This document shows, one piece after another, positions 10,212-60,731 of a stretch of 64,000 bases of DNA; the first letter of the stretch is position 1; every line of letters starts with the position of its first letter. The stretch lies in sequence record MN709127.1. One strand, given 5' to 3'. This DNA is from Escherichia phage Ec_Makalu_002. The notes under the pieces are model-generated. The model saw only the letters and a list, made by a program, of their open reading frames with translations, was not told where the DNA came from and ran no database searches. Position numbers and translations under genes: made by a program.

Positions 10212-11240
10212 TTAAAATTTACAATATTTCATAAACCGCATTTTAGCCATCAGACCTTGTACGGTGTTCTCTTTGATATATTCCATGATCTGGTCGCGTG
10301 TAGCACCCTCATCCTGAATCATGGCGTTAACGTCTTTAGAATGCCACGGGCAACGATCCCACAATACAATCTTTTCCCCTGCATTGATAAACTTTTCCAG
10401 TCGGTGCATTGTATCGGCTGACCGTGGTTCCGCATCAAGTACAAACACTCGCTGGTCTGGGAAAGGGATTTCATCTAATCCCAAAGTACCGCCAGTGATA
10501 GCACATCCATTATCAATAAACAGGGAATCTATCGGACCCTCTAAGAAGTACACTGGTTTGCTCGGATCAGCACGTTCAAGACCGTAGACCTTACTCGCTA
10601 ACTCATGAGTTTTAATCGTCATATATTTGGTCTTTCCGTAATCCTTTCTCAATGCTCGCCCCTGAATGGATTCTATCTTGTTCTCACGGTTAAAGATAGG
10701 AATCACTAAACGCGGTTCAGGTTGCGGATTCTTGAAGGTATCCGCTTTAATGTGATTTGCTACCTTTTGCCATTCTCTCGTGAAATACAGAAGATCCCAT
10801 TTATCGTGGGGAATGCAACGATCACTGACATACTTTATTATAGGATGATTAGCCGGAAGAGTATCTAATCTCTCGCAGAAAGGCAATGTTTGCACTTTCT
10901 TAATCTCCGGCTTTTCTACCTTTTTCAGTGGCTTGAACGTGGTGTTCTTGTGGTCGCCTTGTTCCTTCCGTCGTTCCATAAGCCATTCCCTGAATAGGTC
11001 CGGCTTATATTGTTTAAGAAATTCACCTAACGGCTGATTGTAGTTACAGTTGAAACAACCACAACGCAAACTATCTTTGTAGGTATAGATACGGAATCGC
11101 GCTTGAGTATGATTTTTCTTTGAGTCACCGCAGATCGGACAACTACAGACCAGCGTAAATGAGCTAGTATGCAACCGTTTAAAATTTCGTTCGCCGTATA
11201 TGGCTTTTTCCGCTATTTCATAATCTGCGTAGTAAATCAT
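10212..11240 (-). CDS. 61: DNA primase gp61
   Basis: 342 aa; N-terminal zinc ribbon CxxC..CxxC, TOPRIM-like core; T4 order 61-56. Confidence 0.85.
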   Translation of the reverse strand: MIYYADYEIAEKAIYGERNFKRLHTSSFTLVCSCPICGDSKKNHTQARFRIYTYKDSLRCGCFNCNYNQPLGEFLKQYKPDLFREWLMERRKEQGDHKNTTFKPLKKVEKPEIKKVQTLPFCERLDTLPANHPIIKYVSDRCIPHDKWDLLYFTREWQKVANHIKADTFKNPQPEPRLVIPIFNRENKIESIQGRALRKDYGKTKYMTIKTHELASKVYGLERADPSKPVYFLEGPIDSLFIDNGCAITGGTLGLDEIPFPDQRVFVLDAEPRSADTMHRLEKFINAGEKIVLWDRCPWHSKDVNAMIQDEGATRDQIMEYIKENTVQGLMAKMRFMKYCKF

Positions 11241-11249
11241 AATAACCTC

Positions 11250-11453
11250 TTATAGCTCAAATTTCATGAAAGTTCCAACACTTTCATTTTCATTCTCTCC
11301 GTTTTCATCTAAGCCAAATTTGTAGACACTACCATCTGGCGATGTGTAAGAGAATACACGAAAACGGCCTACCTGGTCAAGTTCTGTAAATTCATATTCT
11401 TTTCCTGCTTCAAAAAGTGCATATGTGCTTTTAAGACATTTCATCGTAATCAT
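11250..11453 (-). CDS. hypothetical protein
   Basis: 67-aa ORF; ATGA overlap with upstream ORF. Confidence 0.45.
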   Translation of the reverse strand: MITMKCLKSTYALFEAGKEYEFTELDQVGRFRVFSYTSPDGSVYKFGLDENGENENESVGTFMKFEL

Positions 11454-11593
11454 TTAAGCGCCACCGATAACAGAATGAGAACTACACCAACATACATTGT
11501 GATCTCGGATAACTTTTCTGTTTTTGTTTTGTGTCCAGATAATCCGAAAACAACAACACCGATAATAGCGGACAGCAAGCCAACGATAAACAT
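11450..11593 (-). CDS. hypothetical small membrane protein (47 aa)
   Basis: MFIVGLLSAIIGVVVFG...; hydrophobic; overlapped start and stop. Confidence 0.3.
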   Translation of the reverse strand: MFIVGLLSAIIGVVVFGLSGHKTKTEKLSEITMYVGVVLILLSVALK

Positions 11594-11600
11594 GATGATA

Positions 11601-11777
11601 CTAAGCACCGTCTTTCTCCTTCTTGCGTTTTTCTTTACCCACTACGCTAGGTCCACGATTGGTAATAGATCCGCTCGTTTCCCCTGCTGCGATCTTCTCA
11701 GGATTGCCGCCAGCATCACCAGCGGTCATATCTTCTTTGAGTTTATTTTCTTCAACAAACTGTTTAAAGCCAATCAT
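11601..11777 (-). CDS. hypothetical small protein (58 aa)
   Basis: MIGFKQFVEEN...; start overlaps stop of upstream ORF. Confidence 0.3.
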   Translation of the reverse strand: MIGFKQFVEENKLKEDMTAGDAGGNPEKIAAGETSGSITNRGPSVVGKEKRKKEKDGA

Positions 11778-12151
11778 AGAATAATCTCTTTCAGTAAGTC
11801 AACGATCTGGTCTTTCGTCAGTTTATCCTGATTCTCTACAATCTTGATAACACAAGCGTTAACATCTTTGCGAGTCACACGGGAGATCGTTTTAATACGA
11901 TGAAACGGTTCGTAGAAATATACTGCTTCATTATAGAGCGCAGCAATTTTTCGACGCATTTGATCTTTATCTGACAAGAAAACAAGTGTTGTTTTATGAC
12001 CTTCTACACCCGCCACGTTATATAGTTCAGCAACACCCCAACGACCTTCCGGTTCAATCATTCCGGCGTGTTTACCGTCGATAAAAATAAGAATATCTCC
12101 GTTGAATGCGGTTTTGAATGCTACATCTTCCGGCGTAATCATATTTTTCAT
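11774..12151 (-). CDS. hypothetical protein
   Basis: 125-aa ORF; SD AAGGAGA; between 61 and 41. Confidence 0.5.
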   Translation of the reverse strand: MKNMITPEDVAFKTAFNGDILIFIDGKHAGMIEPEGRWGVAELYNVAGVEGHKTTLVFLSDKDQMRRKIAALYNEAVYFYEPFHRIKTISRVTRKDVNACVIKIVENQDKLTKDQIVDLLKEIIL

Positions 12152-12181
12152 AATATAGTCTCCTTAGATTTTCATTATAGA

Positions 12182-12817
12182 TCAATCGAATGTAGAAAGC
12201 AATTGTTTTGTTTCTTTCAGTTGTCGTTCAAGATCTTTGCGTTTCTCTTTAAGTTGCATTTTAGCATTATTTCGCTCTCTTGTAACCTCTTTATCAATGC
12301 TCTTATTCCAGTTATCAATATCAGAATAAGTTGGCATACCCAATTCTAGACCTAATGCGGTTGGATACAGGGTAACGGTCCATAAACCTCTAATCTTCTT
12401 AAATAGGTCTGGGTGTAGTGTACTATCTACATCTTCCGGTGTCAACTCTTTTTCTTCTTTCAGTGGTGGGTTCTCGTCATATGGTTCTAGGGCATCTACT
12501 TTATTAGCGGATAGCTCATCAAAGAATCCTCGTACATCCGCAGGAAATACACAAGCAATTTCCCAACCGTGATCGCGCAGAGAAGTAATATTTTTCACTT
12601 CCCCGCCATGTGTGATAATTGACGTGACATTACCATCAAGATCCACCGAATTTACGAGAAATGGCTTATCGTCTGTCAGATCATTATAAAACTGTGCTTC
12701 GGCGGTAGTCATTTCCAGAAACAGATCCCGAATAGGGCGACCATCTGGTGCATTTCCTTCCTTGAGAGTATAAATTCGACTTACGATCCATTTTGGCGGT
12801 AAAGCATTAGCGATCAT
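12182..12817 (-). CDS. hypothetical protein
   Basis: 211-aa ORF; SD AGGAGAT. Confidence 0.5.
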   Translation of the reverse strand: MIANALPPKWIVSRIYTLKEGNAPDGRPIRDLFLEMTTAEAQFYNDLTDDKPFLVNSVDLDGNVTSIITHGGEVKNITSLRDHGWEIACVFPADVRGFFDELSANKVDALEPYDENPPLKEEKELTPEDVDSTLHPDLFKKIRGLWTVTLYPTALGLELGMPTYSDIDNWNKSIDKEVTRERNNAKMQLKEKRKDLERQLKETKQLLSTFD

Positions 12818-12867
12818 GTTATATCTCCTATCAAATCATTCACCAGCGCCCCGCAGGGCGCATTTTA

Positions 12868-14280
12868 TTAGAAAGTCATGTTATTTGCTAGCTCGTCGAG
12901 TTTTTCGCGTTTCTCGGCTTGCTGTGCGCTTTGTGGTTTAACTTGTGCATTCTCCTGATCTGCAATCTGGTTTGGGACTTCATACCAACGCTGATTGCCT
13001 TTTTTCACACCAACGTTAAACCGTGAATAATAGTTCTTATCACCGTAACGAGATTTAATCTGCTTGAGTAATTGAACACCCATTTTTGCAAGATCTTCGG
13101 TCTCAATTACACCCAACATAAAATCGGCTGTAGCCGGAAGACCTGCTGATTCAGCGGTATCACTCATGTTAAGATCCGATGCGTCCCAACCAGCACGGGT
13201 AGTTTGTGCCGCAGTCCAACCAACAACATCCCACTTAACAAAAAATCCGCGAAGTTCTTCCGCAATCGCTTTAACGAGAGTGTAGCTATTCTCAGAGTAT
13301 ACACGCAATCGAGACGATGCGCAAATCCCCAGATAATCAACAATTACAACATCAGGTTTAAACTGTTTCTTGAGTCGCAATTCATTCATTAACGCCTCAA
13401 AGTGATTGGAGTTCGCGCCACCAGTCGGATATTGCTTGATCATCAGCTTGCCGATTGGACGTTCCCCAGCTTTCTTATTCTTGACACGTTTCATGCGTGC
13501 GGAATATTCAGCAAAGGAAACATTACCATCATCCAATTCATCTAAGGTAATGTCAAGCAAATTTGCGTCAATACGTTTGGCTACGACATGCTCTGCCATC
13601 TCCATTGAGATATACAGAACATTATAACCACATTCCATATAATCCGCAGCAAGAGAACACAATCCCAACGATTTACCAACGTTTACACCAGCAAGTAAAA
13701 CATTCAATGTCTTTTTCTCTGCCCCGCCTTTCGTGATTTTATTCAGAATAGACAGCTTAAACGGGATCTTATTCGCTTTAGTCTGATATAACAAGAATCG
13801 TTTTTCAAAGTCATTAAACCAGTCATGACCTACATCAGAATCAAACGTAATGGATAGTGCTTCCTGCATGATCTCAGGAATAGCGCCTTCACTTGGCAAG
13901 TTCTTATTCTGTTTCTCTTTTGGTAGTTGTGCGTTCGCCTGAATCTCAAGCGCCCGTGACATTGCATTATACATAGCGCGGTCACGAATAAATTTTTCGG
14001 TTTCCTTCATTAACCAATCAAGGTCTTCCGGTGTATTCTCCAGCGAATCGAGAAGGGTTTTAGCCCCTTCATATGTTGTCTGATTGCCTCTCTCCTTGTC
14101 TAAAGCAATTTGTAATGCAGTTGGTGTAGGAATATTAGAATATTCGTCTACGTGCTTTTTAATCAGCTTATAAATCAGCTTTTCTTCGTCTTCGGTGAAG
14201 TAGTCCGCTTTAAGGTGAGGCCATACATTCGTAAAGAATGCGCCATTGTAAATCAACTGTGAAAAGATAGTTTTAATCAT
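12868..14280 (-). CDS. 41: replicative DNA helicase gp41 (DnaB-like)
   Basis: 470 aa; Walker A GVNVGKS and DnaB-like motifs. Confidence 0.9.
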   Translation of the reverse strand: MIKTIFSQLIYNGAFFTNVWPHLKADYFTEDEEKLIYKLIKKHVDEYSNIPTPTALQIALDKERGNQTTYEGAKTLLDSLENTPEDLDWLMKETEKFIRDRAMYNAMSRALEIQANAQLPKEKQNKNLPSEGAIPEIMQEALSITFDSDVGHDWFNDFEKRFLLYQTKANKIPFKLSILNKITKGGAEKKTLNVLLAGVNVGKSLGLCSLAADYMECGYNVLYISMEMAEHVVAKRIDANLLDITLDELDDGNVSFAEYSARMKRVKNKKAGERPIGKLMIKQYPTGGANSNHFEALMNELRLKKQFKPDVVIVDYLGICASSRLRVYSENSYTLVKAIAEELRGFFVKWDVVGWTAAQTTRAGWDASDLNMSDTAESAGLPATADFMLGVIETEDLAKMGVQLLKQIKSRYGDKNYYSRFNVGVKKGNQRWYEVPNQIADQENAQVKPQSAQQAEKREKLDELANNMTF

Positions 14281-57663: not shown

Positions 57664-57891
57664 TTATAGTTGATCAGCGATGTATGCGGTGCATTTGCGG
57701 AGTTTAGCCATAGCACCACCTTTCATGTCGCTTGCGCCTACAATGTTCATGATCTCTAAGCGATCAGCCGGATTCAGTCTAGTAGCCCAGATCTGGTTAG
57801 CCAGTTCCATTTTACCCATCTGCGGTTCCATCTCAAACAGTTCACGCTCAAAGTCGATAATTTCTTTTGCTGCGTCTTTAAAGTTAATCAT
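57664..57891 (-). CDS. hypothetical protein
   Basis: 75-aa ORF. Confidence 0.4.
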   Translation of the reverse strand: MINFKDAAKEIIDFERELFEMEPQMGKMELANQIWATRLNPADRLEIMNIVGASDMKGGAMAKLRKCTAYIADQL

Positions 57892-58189: not shown

Positions 58190-58218
58190 ATTATGCTATA
58201 GGCCGGATCTGGTGTCAA
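58190..58218 (-). promoter_or_regulatory. sigma70-like promoter (TTGACA-N17-CATAAT)
   Basis: directly follows terminator; CATCGAAACGAAAC box. Confidence 0.55.
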
Positions 58219-58242: not shown

Positions 58243-58271
58243 CAATAAAAAAGCCACTCCGAAGAGTGGCT
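58243..58271 (-). terminator. rho-independent terminator
   Basis: minus strand AAGCCACTCTTCGGAGTGGCTTTTTTATT. Confidence 0.65.
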
Positions 58272-58419
58272 TATAGGGAAGGTAGCGAATCTTCCTTGTC
58301 TCCAACCTGCTAGCGGCCTAGCAAGTGAATGCTTTAGCGTACCGGATCGCCCATACGCTGCAATAAATGCGGCTAGGTGACGTCCAAATCATTCTAACCG
58401 CGCTGTCTTTAGTTCACTA

Positions 58420-58638
58420 TTATTTATATCGCTTTCTCTCGCGACGTTTTTGATCTTCTTCCTTGATAGAGTTAAATGCATCAAAAAGACACATGACACT
58501 AATAATAAACATAACCGTATTTTCTACGATATCCCACGGCTTCGCATCAGTACAGATCCCCCAAACGGTAAGAAATGCAAATAAGGCAGAAGAGATCACA
58601 AGCATGATACTTGCTAAGACATAAAAGGTCATCTTCAT
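58420..58638 (-). CDS. small membrane protein
   Basis: 72 aa; hydrophobic core, basic tail. Confidence 0.45.
   Translation of the reverse strand: MKMTFYVLASIMLVISSALFAFLTVWGICTDAKPWDIVENTVMFIISVMCLFDAFNSIKEEDQKRRERKRYK
58421..58428 (-). promoter_or_regulatory. T4-type late promoter core TATAAATA
   Basis: exact motif overlapping upstream stop, heading a 148-nt non-coding stretch. Confidence 0.4.
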
Positions 58639-58829
58639 GGTTTTACCTCAATTCTTCGATATTCATCACACATCCATGCAGTAAGCAAGAATCCCAACAC
58701 ATAAGCAACAAAATACGTTAATGCTTCTTCTGGTTCGGTGCTATGCGCCATCATCAGACCAGCGAGAAAGGTCTTAACAATTACATTTAAAATAATTAGC
58801 CACGCAAATAATTTCATCGTTTGCCCCAT
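58635..58829 (-). CDS. small membrane protein
   Basis: 64 aa hydrophobic. Confidence 0.45.
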   Translation of the reverse strand: MGQTMKLFAWLIILNVIVKTFLAGLMMAHSTEPEEALTYFVAYVLGFLLTAWMCDEYRRIEVKP

Positions 58830-59053
58830 TTCGGTCGAGTCTTCTCAAACTTATACATTCCGTGACAATCTCGAATCATCCACGTAACAAGAGCACCACT
58901 CAACACCGACAGCACACAGAAGAAGTAAAACGGTCCGGTTGCATTATCAACATGAGCAAGCCATGTAAAGAATACACATGCTAAGAATGTAAAGAACATC
59001 ATAAAACACAAGAAAGCAAAATATTTTATGCTACTCATATCGCCACCATACAA
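58814..59053 (-). CDS. small membrane protein
   Basis: 79 aa hydrophobic. Confidence 0.45.
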   Translation of the reverse strand: MYGGDMSSIKYFAFLCFMMFFTFLACVFFTWLAHVDNATGPFYFFCVLSVLSGALVTWMIRDCHGMYKFEKTRPKWGKR

Positions 59054-59141
59054 CAGATCATAAGAAACCCAAACGCAATAAGAATTGCATCAAATTTAGT
59101 GAACTCCGGTCCACCTATCAACATCATTCGTTCCTGTTCAG

Positions 59142-59339
59142 TCATAGATCACAGATCCATCTAAAAGCACCACATACAGCGATCAGGAGTGTAGGAACAC
59201 TTGAGAAGAAAACCAATGTACAAAAATCATCTAGTGTAATACCGGAATAACTACCGACTGCAATCACACCGATGATCAGACACAGAAAGAAAACAAATGC
59301 AATCAGAAACAAAGTATTGCTAAACAGTTTAGTGATCAT
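59142..59339 (-). CDS. small membrane protein
   Basis: 65 aa hydrophobic. Confidence 0.45.
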   Translation of the reverse strand: MITKLFSNTLFLIAFVFFLCLIIGVIAVGSYSGITLDDFCTLVFFSSVPTLLIAVCGAFRWICDL

Positions 59340-59533
59340 TAGACACCCCCACGACGGTCAATTTCAAAAACTTTCTTATCACAGACAAAGCAGGTCACTA
59401 CAGCCTCATTGACTTCCGCAAATTGTTGTGTTACCCACTTAAGGTCAGAGCGAAACAATGTTTTGTTAATAACAAATGTTTTACCTTTCTTATCCTTACC
59501 CATAAATTTTGCTTTAACCATATCCAATTCCAT
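59339..59533 (-). CDS. dmd: Dmd-like antitoxin (inhibitor of RnlA/LsoA-type toxins)
   Basis: ME...FMG..K...W.TQQFAEVNEAVV..F..DKKV.E.D.RG pattern matches T4 Dmd (60 aa) as recalled. Confidence 0.5.
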   Translation of the reverse strand: MELDMVKAKFMGKDKKGKTFVINKTLFRSDLKWVTQQFAEVNEAVVTCFVCDKKVFEIDRRGGV

Positions 59534-59542
59534 ATTATCACC

Positions 59543-59701
59543 TTATTTGCTAATCGCTAAACCTAATCCGAAGAGAGCACCAGACGCTACAGTATACCCG
59601 AAAGTTTCAAAGGCAGTCAAGATATCCAACCCACCAGCTAACAGAGTTGCAGTAAACAGAGTACCAGCTACGAACATAAAAGTTTTACCGATAAATTTCA
59701 T
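59543..59701 (-). CDS. small membrane protein (52 aa)
   Basis: MKFIGKTFMFVAGTLFTATLLAGG...; SD AAGGAGAA. Confidence 0.35.
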   Translation of the reverse strand: MKFIGKTFMFVAGTLFTATLLAGGLDILTAFETFGYTVASGALFGLGLAISK

Positions 59702-59733
59702 TTTGATTCTCCTTTCGTTTGTTTGTTGGGGGT

Positions 59734-59762
59734 ATCTTACTACCCCCGTTTCATGTTGTCAA
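59734..59762 (-). promoter_or_regulatory. sigma70-like promoter (TTGACA-N17-TAAGAT), hairpin GGGGGTA..TACCCCC
   Basis: minus-strand reading. Confidence 0.45.
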
Positions 59763-59768
59763 CTGTTT

Positions 59769-60146
59769 TTAAGAAAATTTTACTTCGTCTACAATGTCTT
59801 TCATGACATTGATTTCCATTCCGGTCAGAACACGTTGGAACATGTGCTGCACATACGCTTTCAGGTATTCATTTGATGGCTTGCTATCAAAAGTCTTTTT
59901 AGTGTAGTAGTCATCACCGAAAGCTACTGTAATTACATTTTCGTCGTCGTTCCAGGCAATATAAGCAAATTTGCCGTTATCCCAGAATCGAGCACTAATT
60001 GCTACTTTCGTTGAATCGAATCCTACTTCGCTGTGAGATTCAAGAACTACTTGCGTGCCAGTTTCTTTATGAATGTAGTAGCGGGATACTAAGTCAAAGT
60101 TACGGGTGTAGTGACATTCGAATTTATCTTTAAACATCATCATCAT
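59769..60146 (-). CDS. hypothetical protein
   Basis: 125-aa ORF. Confidence 0.5.
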   Translation of the reverse strand: MMMMFKDKFECHYTRNFDLVSRYYIHKETGTQVVLESHSEVGFDSTKVAISARFWDNGKFAYIAWNDDENVITVAFGDDYYTKKTFDSKPSNEYLKAYVQHMFQRVLTGMEINVMKDIVDEVKFS

Positions 60147-60185: not shown

Positions 60186-60214
60186 ATTATGCTATAGTCG
60201 TTTATGGTTGTCAA
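60186..60214 (-). promoter_or_regulatory. sigma70-like promoter (TTGACA-N17-CATAAT)
   Basis: directly follows terminator; CATCGAAACGAAAC box. Confidence 0.55.
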
Positions 60215-60260: not shown

Positions 60261-60731
60261 TTACAGTTTGGTCGTCCACTCCAGATCTAGATCTTCGACA
60301 TATTCATGTGATCGGACAATCTCTAAATCGAACTCTAGGTCAGTGCCAAATTTACGCGCGCCAACATCATAAGAAAGCGTGATATGCGGTACATATTCAG
60401 GATAATCCCACGTCGCACCTAAAGCAGTTCCGATATCGTGTCTGAATTGCATGTAGTCGCTTTCAAATGCCAGCACAAGTGCATTAGTACCGGATTGAGT
60501 TTCAAACACTTTCAGATGGCACAGAGAGCCTAAGAACTTCTCCCCTTCTTCTGGGATAAACGGAACATAAACACGAGAATATAAGATCGTGCTATGAAGT
60601 TTATCACGAGGAACGGCATTAGGCAGATCGTAGAACTCCTGCAATTTTTCAATGCGGTCTAGTGTATCCTCAGTGAATTTAACCGCCGCATATGTACCTT
60701 TAACGGATTCTCGAAACGGGGTCATAATCAA
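60261..60731 (-). CDS. 2H phosphoesterase, Acb1-like anti-CBASS nuclease (T4 57B position)
   Basis: two H-x-T/S motifs (KLHSTILYS, VPHITLSY); directly upstream of 57A-1-3 as T4 57B. Confidence 0.6.
   Translation of the reverse strand: MIMTPFRESVKGTYAAVKFTEDTLDRIEKLQEFYDLPNAVPRDKLHSTILYSRVYVPFIPEEGEKFLGSLCHLKVFETQSGTNALVLAFESDYMQFRHDIGTALGATWDYPEYVPHITLSYDVGARKFGTDLEFDLEIVRSHEYVEDLDLEWTTKL

Follow-up and report, generated by a model that had tools for sequence, protein, structure and literature searches.

Bacterial HEPN endoribonuclease toxins that act against T4-type phages include RnlA, encoded in the K-12 prophage CP4-57, and its plasmid-encoded homologue LsoA, whose labile antitoxins vanish after phage shut-off (PMC3014915, PMC8266594, PMC9391042). 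Phage T4 counters these toxins with Dmd, a protein that binds the toxin in the groove separating its TBP2/NRD domain from its HEPN domain and protects phage mRNAs (PMC3014915, PMC8266594, PMC9391042). Inhibition of RnlA by T4 Dmd is direct (PMC3014915, PMC8266594), T4 dmd is driven by an early promoter (PMC9391042), and the gene is conditionally essential, being required only on rnlAB+ K-12 (bioRxiv 10.1101/2025.11.20.689424). Coverage of both RnlA and LsoA has led to the description of T4 Dmd as a 'master key' (PMC11990801). T4 carries dmd at a site between genes 41 and 61, and in RB69, as in T4, the gene adjoins a tifA homologue (PMC9391042).

We analyzed a dmd gene within a 64,000-nucleotide stretch of Escherichia phage Ec_Makalu_002 (MN709127.1; hereafter the window), which is a Krischvirus (RB49-like) genome. 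This gene is the Krischvirus orthologue of T4 Dmd (gene 61.5), and its product is predicted, with a probability of about 0.8, to act early in infection as a direct inhibitor of RnlA/LsoA-family HEPN RNase toxins. Both the identity and the position of the gene are already public: the RB49 reference has carried the dmd annotation since 2003, and many other Krischvirus records likewise label it 'dmd: antitoxin'. Gene, family, structural relatives and position in the genus are all found in public annotation, and the gene itself carries little weight as a discovery. The features of the locus and the reference genes used to place it are collected in Table 1.

Table 1. Coordinates of dmd, its flanking features and reference genes in the window.
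Feature	Coordinates	Strand	Description	Source
dmd CDS	59339..59533	minus	ATG to TAA, 64 aa including Met	ORF list
dmd Shine-Dalgarno AAGGTGA	59538..59544	minus	5 nt 5' of ATG	direct sequence reading
G5 homopolymer (C5 on plus strand)	59346..59350	minus	3' end of dmd	window compared with RB49 DNA
PeSL-type early promoter cassette	59725..59762	minus	directly 5' of orf52-dmd; 10/12 matches; direct-repeat family D1	promoter scan
-35 TTGACA of cassette	59762..59757	minus	followed by 17-nt spacer
-10 TAAGAT of cassette	59739..59734	minus
GGGGGTA/TACCCCC stem-loop	59728..59747	minus	overlaps -10; fold z = -3.0
orf52	59543..59701	minus	first gene of unit, GGAG Shine-Dalgarno; phrog_16462, unknown function	ORF list
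orf65, orf36, orf79, orf64, orf72	58420..59339	minus	3' of dmd, tightly packed/overlapping	ORF list
orf65	59142..59339	minus	directly 3' of dmd
Intrinsic-terminator-like hairpin	58251..58272	minus	9-bp stem and T-run, first 3' of dmd	terminator scan
Next PeSL promoter	58218..58190	minus	3' of terminator-like hairpin	promoter scan, cassette alignment
orf75	57664..57891	minus
orf125	59769..60146	minus	between acb1 and dmd unit
PeSL promoter of orf125	60214..60186
57B homologue (acb1)	60261..60731	minus	two genes upstream of dmd
gp61	10215..11237			tblastn
61.1	11610..11777			tblastn
gp41	12871..14280			tblastn

Family membership of the window protein

An earlier note on this DNA had placed a 64-residue product resembling T4 Dmd at positions 59339-59533, and we found the open reading frame with exactly these ends on the minus strand, encoding the 64-residue protein MELDMVKAKFMGKDKKGKTFVINKTLFRSDLKWVTQQFAEVNEAVVTCFVCDKKVFEIDRRGGV. 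The Pfam Dmd profile (PF17587) matches this protein over profile positions 2-60 of 60 with a score of 52.7 bits (curated gathering score 27) and an E-value of 5.4e-14, and PHROG 2102, 'Dmd discriminator of mRNA degradation', matches with an E-value of 2.5e-29. The earlier note had proposed a pairwise alignment with T4 Dmd; tblastn with the translation from a T4 record as query gave one match in the window, the dmd reading frame, with 45% identity over 60/60 residues and an E-value of 3e-13, which is far above chance. A sequence search of the Protein Data Bank returned significant matches limited to T4 Dmd in the LsoA–Dmd complex (5hy3_B, E 6e-12, ungapped over residues 4-62) and RB69 Dmd (5i8j_A, E 2e-9). 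The residues that the earlier note had given as shared with T4 Dmd are confirmed by this comparison, with FMG, W, T.Q, AEVN, A.V, F, DKKV, E.D and RG all identical in the 5hy3_B alignment.

An AlphaFold2 model of the window protein built with 19 close homologues as input (mean pLDDT 92, pTM 0.76) has strands at residues 5-14 and 19-27, a helix at residues 28-42, and strands at residues 44-50 and 53-59, in the order beta-beta-alpha-beta-beta. Foldseek comparison with the Protein Data Bank superposes the model on 5hy3_B with an rmsd of 0.5 Å and a TM-score of 0.96 and matches 5i8j with a TM-score of 0.86; all significant matches are Dmd structures, and the next candidate has an E-value of 0.4. 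The Dmd crystal structures predate the AlphaFold2 training cut-off, so the model may partly reflect memorised Dmd, and we treat the fold match as supportive and not as an independent test. Neither the model nor a hydrophobicity analysis revealed a second domain or a membrane segment in the protein. Profile matches, pairwise alignment, fold and conserved residues all identify the window reading frame as encoding a full-length, single-domain Dmd homologue.

To define the conserved residues we aligned Dmd proteins of seven subtypes, from the window, RB49, the metagenomic protein P0020 described below, T4, RB69, a Dhakavirus and Erwinia phage FBB1, with identities to the window protein of 30-91%. 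Just seven columns are invariant in this alignment: W33, Q37, A39, E40, V41, N42 and D59. In the 5hy3_B alignment, W33 and N42 of the window protein pair with W31 and N40 of T4 Dmd. In 2016 work by Wan and colleagues, mutating W31 or N40 of T4 Dmd reportedly abolished LsoA binding.

Comparison with RB49 reveals 10 synonymous and 4 non-synonymous codon differences in dmd, and all four substitutions (positions 6, 16, 24 and 51) fall outside the invariant core. This pattern is as expected under purifying selection, of which the codon differences appear to give signs. Beyond the small size of dmd, nothing favors a chance open reading frame or mis-called gene without a product. The profile E-values of 1e-14 to 1e-29, the good Shine-Dalgarno sequence ahead of the gene, the excess of synonymous over non-synonymous changes relative to RB49 and the retention of the reading frame in 58 genomes all speak against a chance origin, whose probability is close to nil; we rejected it as already refuted by the homology statistics.

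The 7 kb around dmd are 98.5% identical to Escherichia phage Ec_Makalu_001 and share 95-98% identity with over 50 further RB49-like Krischvirus phages. A protein search identified 58 Krischvirus-like records encoding Dmd at 90-99% identity, and a DNA search with the region likewise gave 58 records; dmd is present in every one of the 58 Krischvirus records of the collection. The window protein is 96.9% identical to Dmd of Ec_Makalu_003 and 93.5% identical to RB49 Dmd over 62 residues. RB49 Dmd has 67 residues compared to the 64 of the window protein, a difference that results from one nucleotide in a homopolymer: the G5 run of the window yields a 64-residue protein ending ...RRGGV*, whereas G4, as in RB49, yields a 67-residue protein ending ...RRGVSNDH*. 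This length polymorphism lies past the conserved domain and leaves the start of the next gene untouched, and both protein forms are common among homologues in public databases. The TAA stop codon of dmd (59339..59341) and the ATG of the next gene overlap as TAATG.

The Dmd family is tiny. When 1.84 billion cluster representatives were searched exhaustively for Dmd with HMMER, four hits were returned, two of which are credible, a T4-type representative and P0020. The remaining two, a eukaryote-type C2H2 zinc-finger repeat protein (P0022) and a tandemly duplicated assembly product (P0023), were discarded as artefacts whose scores were each summed from eight weak stretches. P0020 is a 65-residue metagenomic Dmd-family protein that is 62% identical to the window protein and nearer the Krischvirus type than the T4 type. 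Neither IMG/VR nor the GenBank phage collection contains P0020, its best matches in the latter being Krischvirus proteins at 61%, which suggests an unsampled phage lineage with a Krischvirus-like Dmd subtype.

Map position across T4-like phages

The T4 record lists dmd next to gene 41, followed by 61.4/tifA, sp, 61.2, 61.1 and 61, in agreement with the placement between genes 61 and 41 given in the earlier note. We located gp41, gp61 and 61.1 in the window (Table 1) and found that dmd lies ~45 kb from the 41-61 interval that represents its T4 position. The gene had been called relocated; the separation of ~45 kb from the T4 site bears out the difference in position, whichever way the gene may have moved.

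The 41-61 site of dmd is common to Tequatrovirus, Mosigvirus and Dhakavirus. In the RB49 genome (NC_005066), dmd (RB49p123, NP_891694.1) is found at 59798..60001 under the name 'Dmd discriminator of mRNA degradation' with the note 'T4 gene synonym 61.5', and in RB49, phi1, GEC-3S, Ec_Makalu_001/003 and other Krischvirus genomes the gene lies at ~59-60 kb, counted from the conventional start of the genome, as it does in the window. The neighbors of dmd in RB49 and these other Krischvirus genomes are also those of the window, with 57B/acb1, orf125 and orf52 upstream and a string of small open reading frames downstream. This RB49-type site is the norm and is fixed across Krischvirus.

Erwinia phage FBB1 (Roskildevirus) encodes an unannotated 65-residue Dmd-family protein (MT920315 65591..65788; QOI66483.1, 'hypothetical protein'). 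The FBB1 protein scores 33.1 bits against the Pfam Dmd profile (gathering score 27) and has kept the family-invariant W, Q, AEVN and D. Its gene is found at a third location, flanked by the gene for the topoisomerase large subunit (gp39) on one side and ndd/gp52 on the other.

Because one site is kept throughout Krischvirus and three sites are used among T4-like phages, the position of dmd in the window is not peculiar to this genome; it is the usual place in this lineage for what is a mobile accessory gene. The different site would reflect mobility among the hyperplastic regions of T4-like genomes without functional change. Synteny with genes 41 and 61 is a property of the T4 locus and is not defining for the Dmd protein family. 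Occurrence of dmd at no fewer than three map sites across T4-like genera, each a variable region, supports a view of counter-defence genes as mobile cargo.

A tblastn search of the window at E <1e-3 identified no homologues of T4 tifA, sp, 61.2/adfA or imm, and the window dmd lies outside any T4-type dmd-tifA-adfA 'anti-TA island' (PMC9391042). The 61-41 interval of the window (11238..12870, minus strand) contains orf211 (phrog_16187), a separate orf125 (phrog_16174), the 61.1 homologue, a 52-residue membrane open reading frame and a 67-residue open reading frame; apart from the 61.1 homologue these are unrelated ORFans, and the interval offers no functional assignment. We considered orf211 as a candidate AdfA on the basis of its length class and rejected it, as it has no Pfam or PHROG link to that protein.

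PeSL cassette, transcription unit and neighboring genes

Phages RB49 and phi1 carry promoter-early stem-loop (PeSL) elements with experimentally demonstrated promoter and attenuator activity (Arbiol et al. 2010, PMC2839356), and these elements have been proposed to mediate recombinational ORFan shuffling in hyperplastic regions (PMC2839356). The cassette ahead of orf52-dmd represents one sub-class of the RB49/phi1 PeSLs described in that work (PMC2839356). Upstream of orf52-dmd we found each component of a composite PeSL, namely an A/T tract, located upstream of the -35 element, sigma-70 -35 and -10 elements, a polyG...polyC stem-loop, a Shine-Dalgarno sequence and a start codon. The window matches a pattern derived from this cassette 14 times, in every case on the minus strand, compared to 0.07 expected. 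The 14 sites (2804, 9065, 37864, 38774, 41999, 42676, 46161, 47404, 52048, 57209, 57912, 58181, 59725 and 60177) follow the form TTGACA-N17-YAWRAT and then ACMCMCAWC, and many of them have a polyG/polyC hairpin that covers the -10 element. We rejected the hairpin of the orf52-dmd cassette as a terminator of the previous unit, as it has no U-run on the transcribed strand; it attenuates at most, and transcription from the orf125 promoter at 60214 may in part continue past it.

Downstream of dmd, the next terminator-like hairpin is followed by a further PeSL promoter (Table 1), and from this arrangement we infer an early unit extending from orf52 to orf72 in the order orf52 - dmd - orf65 - orf36 - orf79 - orf64 - orf72, with dmd as the second gene. 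The hairpin is the probable end of this unit, and the five open reading frames downstream are presumably co-transcribed with dmd. The earlier note had described dmd as lying among small membrane-protein genes at ~59 kb, and its six apparent neighbors in the unit are indeed all small and hydrophobic; dmd alone in the proposed unit is non-hydrophobic. The orf52 product is a small hydrophobic ORFan with a GRAVY of 1.13, and orf65, orf36, orf79, orf64 and orf72 each contain hydrophobic 19-mers and each belong to a small PHROG of unknown function. A Pfam scan of orf52, orf65, orf79, orf64 and orf72 gave no match.

Co-transcription with six small hydrophobic ORFans in place of tifA, together with a basic pI that could suit nucleic-acid binding, would fit a Dmd-fold protein that lacks antitoxin activity and is kept for another role, such as RNA or RNase E modulation or one tied to the co-transcribed membrane proteins. 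We consider such a loss of antitoxin activity highly improbable, given a conserved core exactly as in the T4 and RB69 proteins, the signs of purifying selection, conservation throughout the genus and a protein consisting of the Dmd domain and nothing more. We therefore retain orthology with T4 Dmd, including a putative antitoxin role, as the preferred reading of the locus.

RB49 and many Krischvirus records give the label 'RNA ligase' to the 57B homologue that lies two genes upstream of dmd. The encoded protein is the anti-CBASS 2H-phosphodiesterase Acb1 (PF23474, 174 bits; PDB 7t26, E 1.9e-43) and is 100% identical to its RB49 counterpart. With acb1 at a distance of two genes from dmd, two counter-defence genes are neighbors in the Krischvirus lineage. 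Between acb1 and the dmd unit lies orf125, which has its own PeSL promoter (Table 1) and a weak, sub-threshold match to Pfam Phage_T4_Gp30_7 (17.3 bits, E 0.004). Two further open reading frames stand out in comparison with RB49: orf65, directly 3' of dmd, shares only 74% identity with the RB49 version and orf75 only 76%, where the surrounding genes are 93-100% identical. Both of these small genes evolve fast locally and are possible arms-race targets.

One tentative proposal, which we regard as unlikely, is that the RB49-lineage dmd belongs to another counter-defence neighborhood than that of T4, in which some ORFans (such as orf52, orf125 or the fast-evolving orf65) could be unrecognised anti-defence or superinfection-exclusion factors and the toxin spectrum of Dmd could differ from that of the T4 protein. 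The position of dmd beside acb1 and behind a PeSL recombination/promoter cassette makes the unannotated neighbors candidates for counter-defence screening.

Proposed function and comparison with T4 and RB69 Dmd

As an orthologue of T4 Dmd, the Krischvirus protein would act through a sequence of steps. Host sigma-70 RNA polymerase would transcribe dmd from the PeSL early promoter in the first minutes of infection, and the product would bind RnlA/LsoA-family HEPN endoribonuclease toxins directly, replacing the labile host antitoxin (RnlB/LsoB) that is lost upon phage-induced shut-off of host genes. Phage mRNAs of the middle and late classes would then escape degradation and abortive infection would be avoided. 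We infer that dmd is expressed early, that its product binds the toxin directly and that the toxin is of this family, and homology makes it reasonable to regard dmd as putative anti-defence cargo. A literature search found no published experiments on Dmd of RB49 or any Krischvirus. According to the host fields of their records, several dmd-carrying Krischvirus isolates were obtained on K-12 MG1655, a strain that expresses RnlAB.

T4 Dmd (gp61.5, 5HY3 chain B) and the window protein belong to the same length class and share the beta-beta-alpha-beta-beta fold, the invariant W..Q.AEVN core and the C-terminal D, and an early promoter drives dmd in T4 and probably in Krischvirus as well. In contrast, identity between the two proteins is only 45%, and T4 Dmd is acidic with a pI of 5.2, whereas the Krischvirus Dmd of the window is basic with a pI of 9.3 and a net charge of about +4. 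The beta1-beta2 hairpin also differs, reading GKDKKGK in the window protein and GWFKNES in T4 Dmd. The shift in pI and the changed hairpin mean that the affinity or toxin specificity of Krischvirus Dmd could differ from that of the T4 protein.

These differences bear on a second possibility, that fold and antitoxin-mimic role are kept but retuned, so that the Krischvirus protein would inhibit another toxin of the RnlA/LsoA HEPN family, or would act on RnlA alone or LsoA alone. Consistent with this, Krischvirus-type proteins are at least 77% identical among themselves and 45-47% identical to the T4/RB69 type, the net charge has shifted by about +5 along with replacement of the hairpin, and a precedent exists in TifA homologues, which vary in their inhibition of a given ToxN (PMC9391042). 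On the other side, T4 Dmd acts on both RnlA and LsoA (PMC11990801), which suggests that breadth is typical. Krischviruses have moreover been isolated on RnlAB+ K-12. All seven family-invariant residues are kept, including W33 and N42, whose T4 counterparts are reportedly required for LsoA binding. On balance a retuned specificity seems improbable, though it is the most substantial of the alternatives to inhibition of RnlA/LsoA-family toxins by a T4-like Dmd, which remains our preferred reading.

RB69 Dmd (5I8J) is 47% identical to the window protein, matches its model with a TM-score of 0.86 and has the same conserved core, differing by a 2-residue insertion before the helix relative to the window protein. 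In genome context, T4 dmd is paired with tifA between genes 41 and 61, whereas the window dmd stands without tifA in the hyperplastic region that extends from 57B to the endolysin gene. Compared to these two structurally characterized proteins, Krischvirus Dmd represents a divergent, basic subtype of the family with a putative antitoxin function.
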